From a virus, in IMG/VR virus record IMGVR_UViG_3300033146_005170, positions 10,015 through 74,014 of that record: a stretch of 64,000 bases of DNA; one strand, given 5' to 3'. The notes beneath the pieces are model-generated. The model saw only the letters and a program-made list of their open reading frames with translations, was not told the DNA's origin and did no database searches. This document shows, piece after piece, positions 10,559-22,177 of this stretch (position 1 is the stretch's first letter; every line of letters begins with the position of its first letter). A program made the position numbers and the translations under genes.

Positions 10559-11128
10559 TTAAATCTTTGCCATTAAATTAAATTTTAAGGCTATGACTAA
10601 TTTTTCTTTTGGACTAAGTTTTTTAAGTCCTCTTATAACAAAGTCAAAATTATCTTCTTGTTCTACTATTTCTAAAGTATCTTCTGTATTATGATCAATA
10701 TGATCTAGCTCAGTAAGCCCACACTTATCAGTTTGAAGTTCTAAAACTTGAATTATTAAATGTTTATTCATTCCTAACTCTTTAGCAATTAAATTAGCAT
10801 CAGGGATAAAATCATGAATTTTTGCAAAGTCTTCAATAAATTTGTAAACTTTAAATCTATTATAGACAATATGACTTGGCAGTTTTAATACTCTAGATCT
10901 AGAGGTAAGAGCATATGTAATAGCTTGTTTTATCCAAAAGCCTGCATAAGTAGAGAACTTAGTACCATAAGAAGGATCATAATGCTCTATAGCATTTAGT
11001 AAGCCAATACTACCTTCTTGAATAAGATCTTGAAAGTCTAAGCCTTTACTTGTTTTTCGATATTTATTAGCTATTATTTTCACTAAATATAAGTAATCTT
11101 CTACTAGGTCATTTATAAATGGGTCCAC
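10559..11128 (-). CDS. Phage sigma70-family factor (regions 2-3 and 4.1, lacking the region 4.2 HTH)
   Basis: DLIQEGSIGLLNAIEHYDP..GTKFSTYAGFWIKQAI = RpoD region 2; ends LSPKEKLVIALKFNLMAKI*. Confidence 0.9.
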   Translation of the reverse strand: MDPFINDLVEDYLYLVKIIANKYRKTSKGLDFQDLIQEGSIGLLNAIEHYDPSYGTKFSTYAGFWIKQAITYALTSRSRVLKLPSHIVYNRFKVYKFIEDFAKIHDFIPDANLIAKELGMNKHLIIQVLELQTDKCGLTELDHIDHNTEDTLEIVEQEDNFDFVIRGLKKLSPKEKLVIALKFNLMAKI

Positions 11129-12546
11129 TCTCTTATCTCCTTTTCAGTTATACGATTATCGAAAAATACAGATACTTCTTCTTTACCACTAAGAACTTGT
11201 TTAATAAAATCTATATTAGTTTTTATACCTCTAAATAAAGCTACTGCTGGTGTATTTTTAGCAATTAGAACAAAAATATTCACTTCCTCAGTTTGACCTG
11301 GTCTATGAACTCTATCTTGTCCTTGAAAAAATCCATCTACTTCATGATCAAGTTCAGCAAAAATTACATTATGAGCTTGTTGAAGATCTAGACCTACTCC
11401 TGCTGATTTAGGATTAGCCAAAAGGCATTGAACTTTTTTTGATTTAAAAAGTCTAACTGCTTCATCTTTCTTTTTAGCAGATACTCTTCCGTGTAATTCT
11501 GTAAAAGTTATTTTTTTATTTATAAGCAGCTCTTTCATTAAGTCCATATTAGCATGGAAATGTCCAAAAAGTATAAATTGTTCTGTACCTAAATCATCAA
11601 TTAAATTGCTTAAAACCTCCAAATAAGCTGATGGTTCTTTGGAATCTACTAACTTAGGATTAAACATAGCTCTTCTAGCTTCCATCATTAAAGCTGAGCC
11701 TTGTAAATAGACCAATTCTTTACTTACATCTTTAAGTTCTAAAAAGCCAAAACTAATAAGTTCACGTAGATTTTTTTCATGCTTTTCAGCTAAACTAAAC
11801 TGCTTTATAATCAGTCTTTTTTTAGGCAAGTCTTTTAAAACATCTTTTTTTAATAGTCTTCTACTAAATTTATTTAGCATATTACCTAATTCTGTTAGTC
11901 TTCTCCAACCAGTTATCAAAGGAAAACCATCTTTACCTTTACCCCTAATGACATGAATTCTTTCAAAGTTCTTTTTAGTCACATAAACTGCAGGTTTTAT
12001 TAATTGAAAAATATGAAATAAATCTCTTGGATCTTTAGTTAAAGGTGTACCATTCATTACAGTGACATACTTTGCTTTAAAGGCTAAAGCTTGAACTACA
12101 CCAAAACGATTCATTCTACCTGTAGAAGTAGATCTTTTGACTTCTCCAATTTTTACATTTTTAGATTCATCTATGGTAACAATATTCCAGGGAAATTTTT
12201 TAAGCTTTTCATAGTCTCTTACAACTAAATCATAGCTTATAATAACAATATTATGAGCCTCAATATTAAGTTTAGAACGTTGTTTAATTGTACCTTTATA
12301 CTTTAAAGCTTTTAAATTAGTATCAAAATACTCATAAATTTTATCATACCAAGTATCTAGCAATATTGGAGGTACAATTACTAAAGCCTTGCCACCTTCA
12401 GTCTCTAAAACATAAGTAATTAGTAAAAGAGCTCCAAAAGTTTTACCAACTCCAGGATCATGTAAAAGAGCTCCTTTTTGTTTATGTAAAAGATATTTAA
12501 AATCTTCTAACTGATAGTCATATGGATCTAATTTTATCTTAGTCAT
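11113..12546 (-). CDS. SNF2-family (SF2) helicase
   Basis: YDYQ, DPGVGKT, IDES, GTP, GVGLDLQ, QGQDRVHRPGQ. Confidence 0.9.
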   Translation of the reverse strand: MTKIKLDPYDYQLEDFKYLLHKQKGALLHDPGVGKTFGALLLITYVLETEGGKALVIVPPILLDTWYDKIYEYFDTNLKALKYKGTIKQRSKLNIEAHNIVIISYDLVVRDYEKLKKFPWNIVTIDESKNVKIGEVKRSTSTGRMNRFGVVQALAFKAKYVTVMNGTPLTKDPRDLFHIFQLIKPAVYVTKKNFERIHVIRGKGKDGFPLITGWRRLTELGNMLNKFSRRLLKKDVLKDLPKKRLIIKQFSLAEKHEKNLRELISFGFLELKDVSKELVYLQGSALMMEARRAMFNPKLVDSKEPSAYLEVLSNLIDDLGTEQFILFGHFHANMDLMKELLINKKITFTELHGRVSAKKKDEAVRLFKSKKVQCLLANPKSAGVGLDLQQAHNVIFAELDHEVDGFFQGQDRVHRPGQTEEVNIFVLIAKNTPAVALFRGIKTNIDFIKQVLSGKEEVSVFFDNRITEKEIREWTHL

Positions 12547-12548
12547 AG

Positions 12549-21885: not shown

Positions 21886-21915
21886 TTTTAACTCCTTTAA
21901 TATATATATACTATA

Positions 21916-21946
21916 ATTATATAATGAGTTTTTTAATGGGTTATTC
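21916..21946 (-). promoter_or_regulatory. Promoter GAATAAC-N18-TATAAT
   Basis: Six-copy promoter family. Confidence 0.6.
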
Positions 21947-22177
21947 GTAGTATCTTTTGACTTTAACTTGTAATTTTGAGATGGCAATATCATAAACTCG
22001 CCATATTCTTTGTCGAGAGATTTGAAGAATTTCTGCTATTTCAGCTACATCATAAGGTCTGTCCTCTAGTTGTATATCTAGAGAACATTTACCTTTTTTA
22101 TTTCTGTATTCGCAGAAGATTTTTTTGCAGTCTTTGGACGTGTCCGCATGCTCAGGGCATACATCCATAGGTTTCAT
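21941..22177 (-). CDS. Stand-alone sigma70 region-4.2-like HTH with N-terminal Cys/His cluster
   Basis: YDVAEIAEILQISRQRIWRVYDIAISKL aligns with Rpo[35 protein letters not shown], C upstream. Confidence 0.75.
   Translation of the reverse strand: MKPMDVCPEHADTSKDCKKIFCEYRNKKGKCSLDIQLEDRPYDVAEIAEILQISRQRIWRVYDIAISKLQVKVKRYYE

Follow-up and report, generated by a model that had tools for sequence, protein, structure and literature searches.

The 64,000-nucleotide stretch of viral DNA analysed here (the window, whose coordinates are used throughout) corresponds to bases 10015–74014 of the 74,014-bp IMG/VR record IMGVR_UViG_3300033146_005170, a phage genome (G000) with direct terminal repeats that is estimated to be complete. 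It encodes an RpoD-type sigma factor of 189 amino acids (aa) that ends after region 4.1 (10559–11128, minus strand) and, 11 kb away, a 78-aa protein in which a four-cysteine module precedes a region-4.2 helix-turn-helix (HTH; 21941–22177, minus strand). We propose, with a probability of roughly 0.6, that the two would act together as a functional two-piece sigma factor split inside domain 4, the mini-protein supplying -35 recognition in trans. Four direct observations underlie this proposal: which domains each protein contains, that the truncation is conserved, that the two gene families are associated across phages, and that there is a family of promoter-like sites with a non-canonical -35-like box.

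A sigma factor that ends after region 4.1

The larger protein spans regions 2.1 to 4.1 and lacks both region 1 and the 4.2 recognition helix; its GTG start codon overlaps the end of an SNF2 helicase gene. It matched Pfam Sigma70_r2 with 62.1 bits (E 4.4e-17; cut-off 24) and the sigma factor family phrog_351 at 2.5e-36, and it contains GFWIKQAIT, which bears out the RpoD-like region 2 read in the initial annotation. Regions 2.3–2.4 align to solved sigma-A chains and are RpoD-like, carrying Q and T where the -12 position is read, a composition that fits TATAAT as the -10 element. Beyond region 2, the alignment covers positions 3–189 of 238 in NCBIfam RpoD_Cterm unbroken, positions 79–264 of 298 in Sig70-cyanoRpoD and, again without a break, residues 94–281 of solved RpoS. 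Region 3, which had also been claimed, is supported by this contiguous profile coverage, but a separate Pfam Sigma70_r3 match was not obtained at E ≤ 1.

The C-terminus (...LKKLSPKEKLVIALKFNLMAKI*) retains region 4.1, which aligns with the 4.1 helices of RpoS and of the full-length relative P0013; in the latter alignment the 4.2 HTH follows where the 189-aa sigma stops. Together with the end of the RpoD_Cterm match at position 189 of 238, this agrees with the predicted end point, and sister truncated sigmas likewise cover only positions 1–18 of Sigma70_r4. The 101 bp past the stop codon encode no region 4.2 in any frame and hold a promoter-like site as well as a ribosome-binding site for the gene that follows, so that the DNA is promoter-like, as initially described, and not a frame-shifted continuation. 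A six-frame search of the whole 74-kb genome returned one Sigma70_r2 match and one region-4-like match, the latter in the 78-aa open reading frame (ORF).

Loss of regions 1 and 4.2 would also suit a protein that occupies the host core polymerase as a competitor and shuts off host transcription, the mini-protein being unrelated to it, and SPO1 Gp33 (PMC13401047) is one example of a phage protein that blocks the host sigma. We regard such a role as very improbable, since region 3 and the residues that recognise the -10 element are as conserved as in working sigmas, and since it would leave the strong TATAAT promoter family of the phage and the association between the two genes (both described below) without explanation. 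Our proposal is that the truncated sigma binds core RNA polymerase and recognises promoters.

A four-cysteine mini-protein carrying region 4.2

The 78-aa protein comprises an N-terminal four-cysteine module (C7, C17, C22, C31) followed by a region-4.2 HTH at approximately residues 40–72. Its match to Pfam Sigma70_r4 covers profile positions 19–49 of 50 (E 0.0016; 18.4 bits, short of the gathering score of 24.1) and, being limited to these positions, therefore describes a 4.2 without 4.1. Among its family, 7 of 11 members matched Sigma70_r4 (best E 1.5e-9), those of jumbo phages scoring 35–40 bits, above the cut-off. A profile of the family matched fragments of solved sigma-A that cover region 4 (E 2e-5), and sigma factors made up nearly all of the top 60 matches. 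Judged by these profile comparisons, the HTH is a true sigma-4.2 homologue, as the initial annotation had recognised for 21941–22177, and the protein is a candidate trans-acting -35 reader.

The cysteines follow the spacing C-x9-C-x4-C-x8-C, and C17, C22, C31 and R57 are invariant in a 12-sequence alignment that includes the jumbo-phage members. The module had been described as a Cys/His cluster; its four cysteines are conserved, but the histidine is not. The module probably binds metal, possibly the zinc that the initial annotation suggested. In an AF2 model built from 15 sequences, HTH helices 44–51 and 55–77 were predicted with pLDDT 82–92 and the non-helical Cys part with 54–62. Foldseek comparison of the model with the PDB gave no significant match, the top rows being mostly sigma-A domain 4.

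No match to the mini-protein or to its jumbo-phage homologue was found by tblastn in 50,697 deposited phage records. An exhaustive profile search (11 matches) revealed no fusion of a sigma with either the mini-protein 4.2 or the Cys module; the long matches in it were region-4 repeat proteins, a duplicated sigma and junk repeats. A scan of genome contigs with P0018 yielded no match, and a metagenome scan only contigs of 1–2 kb.

An acidic 81-aa ORF (22179–22424, minus strand) ends one base before the mini-protein start codon. It has no family match and is kept directly upstream of the mini-protein gene in both related complete genomes described below, with 62% identity in G001 and 29% in G002; its product might act as a chaperone or form a third component. 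Separately, a group of distant IMG/VR proteins (L015–L017), encoded just upstream of an SSB-like gene, joins a CxxC...CxxC zinc ribbon to a complete sigma domain 4. They were rejected as members of the same family, as they carry both 4.1 and 4.2 and occur in phages without a sigma: no sigma region 2 match was found in their records, of which G005 (L017) is 90%, G003 14% and G004 31% complete.

Conservation of the truncation and co-occurrence of the two families

The end point of the sigma is conserved within its clade. Four metagenomic relatives (P0009–P0012; 61–63% identity) are all exactly 189 aa long, and the two related complete phages carry both genes, so that the pair is present in 3/3 complete genomes of the clade. 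In the closer one (G001, 75.7 kb) the genes lie about 9 kb apart. In the more distant one (G002, 96.5 kb) the gene order is retained, the mini-protein is 45% identical to that of the window, and the sigma, 187 aa long and 36% identical, ends at the equivalent place (...LQYGLLSKIK*). Across six sequences down to 35% identity the sigma end is conserved, L185 and K188 are invariant and the last residues are among the best conserved positions, which would be unexpected of two orphan 4.1 helices that had no partner. Isolates with related sigmas, namely Synechococcus phages S-H34 and S-B68, Vibrio phage 2.275.O, Microcystis phage MaAM05 and S-CBS1, all encode full-length proteins.

To place this clade in a wider context, an alignment of truncated sigmas was searched against IMG/VR, giving 80 phage RpoD-like sigma loci whose ORFs were extended past region 4.1. 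At 37 of 55 loci the ORF ended 2–27 residues after a ...LRLRFGI/L motif, in an acidic non-HTH tail that often reads ...D..FPI[TS]..E...L (loci L035–L112; records G010–G034), and the remaining 18 were full length. Sigmas without the recognition helix are thus common in uncultured phages; most of these loci form one well-supported clade of jumbo-phage fragments with 39–46% G+C. A six-frame Pfam search of 34 records placed truncated sigmas at Sigma70_r4 positions 1–18 only and full-length ones at 1–50. It also uncovered a separate small 4.2-only ORF (E 1e-9 to 1e-11) in the three largest truncated-sigma records, G017 (176 kb, 52% complete), G025 (255 kb, 75%) and G031 (257 kb, 76%), more than 100 kb from the sigma gene. 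These ORFs have the architecture of the window protein: a Cys cluster, C-[ST]-[LI] and the HTH.

A profile of the mini-protein family was then run over 64 records. Full-length matches were confined to G000, G001, G002, G017, G025 and G031, all with a truncated sigma, and to one 30%-complete fragment not assigned to either sigma class. Accordingly, the family occurs in 6/9 truncated-sigma records at least 50% complete and in 0/29 intact-sigma records (Fisher p = 3e-5, not corrected for phylogeny), where the profile matched only the C-terminus of the sigma itself. The intact-sigma set includes eight virus records estimated to be at least 88% complete and three deposited isolates; fragments that hold the sigma gene but are shorter than the distance from sigma to mini-protein were not scorable. 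Small HTH ORFs of the intact-sigma records were rejected as family members, being winged-helix proteins without a Cys cluster. Among the three truncated-sigma records without a match, the G009 contig begins 0.8 kb before the sigma gene. The association of the Cys4-4.2 family with truncated sigmas thus extends to two deeply diverged clades, and the interpretation offered in the initial annotation survived a comparison able to refute it.

In a maximum-likelihood tree the truncated sigmas fell into three groups with full-length sigmas between them: the window clade, a pair nested among full-length sigmas and the well-supported jumbo-phage clade (25 rows). Across clades that share about 30% sigma identity and differ four- to five-fold in genome size, the association reflects either convergence or co-retention; both favour a functional link, although independent events are few.

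A promoter family with a non-canonical -35-like box

The pattern TGTGTWAC-N17-19-TATAAT has three exact copies in G000, all with N18, against 0 expected; they are intergenic and lie in the minus-strand arm. One of them, TGTGTTAC-N18-TATAAT (10524–10555), follows the sigma stop upstream of a 215-aa gene, and the other two share TGTGTAAC-N18-TATAAT (18520–18551 and 26942–26973). Including variants, there are seven sites, all on the minus strand. AGGTAAC-N18-TATAAT (27300–27331) stands in tandem with the site at 26942, and three variant sites combine other boxes with TATAAT. Of these, the one at 15908–15939 (CGTACA box, CTTATTA) is upstream of the operon of NTP-pyrophosphohydrolase, putative primase-helicase, SNF2 helicase and sigma, and that at 25386–25417 (GAGTACC box) is upstream of the operon in which the mini-protein gene is last. 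The site at 21916–21947 (GAATAAC box) lies at the end of the mini-protein gene, past its stop and upstream of a KTSC-domain gene; G001 has an equivalent site just after its own mini-protein gene.

In the relatives, the sites number 12 in G001, where they are nearly identical (ACTTGTGnTATAAT), and 15 in G002, with CTTG-N3-TATAAT. The element AAG(T) at -24 to -21 is present at 9/12 of the G001 sites vs 7/58 other TATAAT sites (p = 3e-5), and at 14/15 of the G002 sites vs 12/130 others (p = 1e-11). The jumbo phage G031 carries two families on one strand, TGT[TC]C[A]-N17-TATATT (11–12 sites vs about 0.2 expected, one directly upstream of the truncated sigma gene) and TGTACA-N17-TAACAG (19 sites vs 0 expected), that is, two classes with a common -35-like box and different -10 elements. 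The box G and T occupy -22 and -21 in G001, G002 and G031 alike, and the G000 box is one base further away. Phages of both clades therefore have a non-canonical -35-like box (core GT[AT]) 17–18 bp upstream of TATAAT or TATATT, which gives a -35 reader something to read. The mini-protein is the sole 4.2-like protein that these phages encode, their own sigma lacking 4.2.

With the exception of the site at 26942–26973, the boxes are single, non-palindromic half-sites at sigma-like spacing. In that site the box lies within a perfect 12+1+12 bp inverted repeat (26956–26980, minus strand; TTCACTATGTGT A ACACATAGTGAA) that resembles an operator placed at the first middle-region promoter. A 42-aa early HTH ORF (30487–30615, minus strand; ..IAKYMAVSQSTVYYVLRK..) was considered as the box reader and rejected, as it is absent from G001 and G002. 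In G031, the 19 TGTACA-N17-TAACAGATC copies lie at 204–226 kb on the minus strand (L191–L203), before a tandem family of small genes. The same genome encodes a very weak second region-2-like ORF without region 4 (L197:6873–7589, minus strand), and similar ORFs of 245–248 aa occur in G010 and G025 (per-genome E 0.007–0.05; Pfam E 0.16). Such an ORF might encode a divergent additional -10 reader of jumbo phages.

No site of the family was found in the structural arms of G000, G001 or G002, and a search of the structural arm gave no convincing promoter motif and no TATAAT-type family; a canonical sigma-70 scan of the early region did not exceed shuffled sequences. The distribution of sites invites another explanation, in which TATAAT is read by the host primary sigma, the mini-protein steers the host polymerase towards the phage box much as T4 MotA does at middle promoters, and the truncated sigma serves another class such as the structural genes. 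A perfect host-type TATAAT, the absence of the family from the structural arm and the position of both phage genes within operons of these promoters, as expected of middle genes that activate late ones, would all suit it. It is nevertheless distinctly unlikely. The phage sigma, RpoD-like in regions 2.3–2.4, should itself prefer TATAAT, and the structural arm holds no TATAAT-type family. Moreover, a host sigma would keep its own 4.2 on the flap, and no AsiA-like remodeller was identified. Nor does this explanation account for the association with a phage sigma that has lost its 4.2.

Junction and predicted complex

The two pieces adjoin when placed on intact sigmas. On the solved RpoD chain 7ye1_F the sigma covers residues 417–603 and the mini-protein family 608–639, and on Sig70-cyanoRpoD the sigma covers 79–264 and relatives of the mini-protein 264/265–298. 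Profile searches accordingly located 4.1 at the sigma end and 4.2 in the small protein, as the initial annotation had anticipated. Its claim that the pieces are complementary at the junction holds for this adjacent coverage, but the split is not perfectly clean: the sigma tail NLMAKI and the mini-protein segment SLDIQLEDRP both correspond to the 4.1–4.2 loop, so that each piece keeps a version of it.

Prediction of a complex between sigma residues 135–189 and the mini-protein gave an ipSAE of 0.39 (best of three controls, 0.00), with at least 84% contact agreement among runs and a partner pLDDT of at least 64. Of 80 solved complexes, 58 reached the mark applied, as did 2 of 110 mismatched pairs; with an ipSAE of 0.60 or below, only 7 of the 80 solved complexes did so, together with both of the passing mismatches. 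The result accordingly counts as weak support for an interaction. Because the pieces resemble the halves of a solved domain, the pass may also reflect memory of an intact sigma domain 4.

Proposed mechanism and points against it

In the proposed two-piece sigma, the 189-aa protein would keep the parts that bind core polymerase and read the -10 element (regions 2 and 3), together with the two helices of region 4.1. The 4.2 recognition helix that it has lost would be replaced by the HTH of the 78-aa protein, held by the probably metal-binding four-cysteine module in place of region 4.1. In normal sigmas, region 4.1 sits on the beta-flap; the mini-protein may dock on the holoenzyme through the orphan 4.1 helices, the flap or both. 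With host core RNA polymerase, both proteins would then read the phage promoters of the replication and nucleotide-metabolism arm, which consist of a TGT[AT]AC box (AAGT in the relatives), a 17–18 bp spacer with a CT[TC][AG] element and a perfect TATAAT. The mini-protein would be the reader of the box, and the phage sigma, not that of the host, the reader of TATAAT.

Several points weigh against this mechanism. Both genes lie downstream of promoters that would need their products, and early read-through or recognition by a host sigma would therefore be needed to start the system. The mini-protein has its own 4.1–4.2 loop (C-S-L-D), and its Cys module may replace 4.1 to give a self-contained domain. 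The genes are never adjacent: 11 kb separate them here, and more than 100 kb in jumbo phages. Two truncated-sigma records (58% and 73% complete) contain no match to the mini-protein. Phages commonly encode proteins of about 80 aa that contain region 4 alone, and the 90%-complete record without a sigma described above encodes a zinc-ribbon protein with a full sigma domain 4. Finally, an approximately unbiased (AU) test did not reject joining the window and jumbo-phage clades (p = 0.18); the association may therefore amount to one or two evolutionary events, and an independent origin of the two truncated clades, despite their separation in the tree, is not claimed.

Some of these points would equally suit a truncated sigma that acts alone, reading TATAAT together with the CT[TC][AG] element three bases upstream in the style of an extended -10 promoter and requiring no contact at -35. 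The mini-protein would then be a separate activator or repressor, which may or may not bind the upstream box, and the two gene families would be co-inherited and nothing more. According to PMC2613000, which cites Kumar et al. 1993, E. coli sigma-70 without 4.2 does initiate at extended -10 promoters, and a conserved element lies just upstream of TATAAT in the phage promoters, the CTTG-N3-TATAAT core being their most conserved part in G001 and G002. The frequency of small region-4-only proteins in phages, the operator-like 25-bp repeat around the 26942–26973 box and the single origin left standing by the AU test point in the same direction. Action of the sigma alone is nonetheless rather doubtful, as it would leave the conserved 4.1 helices and extreme C-terminus without a partner, and would explain neither a non-palindromic box fixed at 17–18 bp from the -10 element in four phages nor the absence of the Cys4-4.2 family from 29/29 intact-sigma records.

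Comparison with known divided or remodelled sigmas

In the two-subunit sigmas established so far, either the cut falls between domains 2 and 4 or a non-HTH protein stands in for domain 4. In SigO-RsoA of B. subtilis and Sig7-Sig8 of Tn916, both subunits associate with RNA polymerase (bioRxiv 10.64898/2026.10.01.756105), and, as in the window pair, the -10-reading and -35-reading parts of sigma-70 reside on two small proteins. Those systems are cut between domains 2 and 4 and their genes are adjacent, whereas the window pair is cut inside domain 4 after 4.1, has an RpoD-like large piece with region 3 and a Cys4 small piece, and is encoded by genes 11 kb to more than 100 kb apart. No sequence similarity to those proteins was found, nor was any tested for.

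Phage T4 gp55/gp33 resembles the pair in combining a sigma that has no -35 reader with a small domain-4 stand-in encoded by an unlinked gene. However, gp55 has neither region 3 nor 4.1, gp33 is not an HTH protein, does not read DNA and links to the sliding clamp, and a -35 element, conserved in the phages studied here, is lacking from T4 late promoters. SPO1 gp34/gp33 are classically described as a pair of phage proteins jointly directing late transcription. The SPO1 gp33 structure consists of a helix and a small alpha/beta domain that binds beta-prime and region 4 of host sigma-A and inhibits host transcription (PMC13401047); unlike the mini-protein, it is not a region-4.2 homologue.

The E. 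coli sigma-70 cut before 4.2, which initiates at extended -10 promoters according to PMC2613000, also retains regions 2–3 without 4.2, but it is a laboratory truncation, while that of the window is natural, conserved and accompanied by a box at the -35 position. T4 MotA/AsiA offers a parallel in that a phage DNA-binding protein replaces -35 recognition and a host-type -10 is kept; there, domain 4 of the host sigma is remodelled, whereas the phage sigma of the window already lacks 4.2 and the proposed reader is a 4.2 homologue in its own right. The WhiB-like (Wbl) proteins of actinobacteria and their phages are likewise small four-cysteine proteins that act at the -35 position and contact sigma domain 4, and such complexes are among the structural neighbours of the mini-protein model. 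Neither the Wbl motif C-Xn-C-X2-C-X5-C nor the Wbl fold is seen in the mini-protein (C-x9-C-x4-C-x8-C), which has no Wbl Pfam match; Wbl proteins have no sigma-4.2 HTH and bind intact sigma, whereas the mini-protein has a 4.2 HTH and co-occurs with a truncated one. Neither a Cys4-4.2 family nor a sigma split within region 4 was described in the papers returned by a literature search of incomplete coverage.

Genome setting

The genome has about 32% G+C, strong AAGGAG ribosome-binding sites throughout and two divergent arms. The minus-strand arm begins with small early genes, followed by nucleotide-metabolism and replication genes that include DNA ligase, SNF2 helicase, sigma, dNMP kinase, 5'-3' exonuclease and family-A DNA polymerase; a 914-aa protein (12549–15293) is read as a putative primase-helicase, a reading made without any family match. 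The plus-strand arm encodes terminase and structural genes. No close deposited phage was found, the top sigma match having 35% identity, and the genes neighbouring the pair gave no informative family matches.

Further features stand apart from the sigma and the mini-protein. In the structural arm, a single ORF of 4097 aa (44885–57178, plus strand) has a counterpart of 4181 aa in G001. A conserved 5' leader, TGTAAGCAATAAAA.CATAGGAGGCC, precedes orthologous 276/277-aa structural-arm genes at 43290–43339 (plus strand) in G000 and at about 75560–75610 (minus strand) in G001. Among the early small ORFs in 29146–30886 (minus strand), several have a common leader, CTGGATGTTGCCTGARAGAATAAAGGAG, which is also present in G001, and G002 has an analogous hairpin leader in at least six copies. 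In the minus-strand arm, a relatively G+C-rich gap of 274 bp without genes occurs at 17682–17955.

Implications for phage transcription

Domain 4 of sigma is generally regarded as a single folding unit. If confirmed, a natural and conserved division between flap-binding helices (4.1) and DNA-reading ones (4.2) would mean that a bacterial RNA polymerase holoenzyme can receive its -35 recognition in trans, and would add a third architecture to the few two-subunit sigmas. We see about an even chance that the pair represents an undescribed and widespread phage class, in which a -10-reading subunit without a recognition helix works with a separate, metal-held 4.2 mini-subunit that reads a GT[AT] box, and in which, in jumbo phages, one mini-subunit may serve two -10 readers. 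The latter may be suggested by the two G031 promoter classes together with the second weak sigma-2-like ORF and, if true, would provide a combinatorial or AND-gated timing switch. The 'swappable' -35 reader of the initial annotation is speculation, with a single weak lead in the two G031 promoter classes that share one -35 box. Likewise, the Cys cluster might confer metal or redox sensitivity if the proposed mechanism holds.

With a pair of small proteins and defined promoters, the proposal makes several questions testable, including the manner in which domain 4 docks on the beta-flap, the evolution of -35 specificity and whether separate production of the two halves sets the timing of gene expression, and the parts could be of use as compact orthogonal components for synthetic transcription circuits. 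The pairing is more widespread than the single window had suggested and, if the two-piece reading is true, it would explain many of the 'truncated' sigma genes of uncultured phages, jumbo phages included, that are annotated merely as RpoD.

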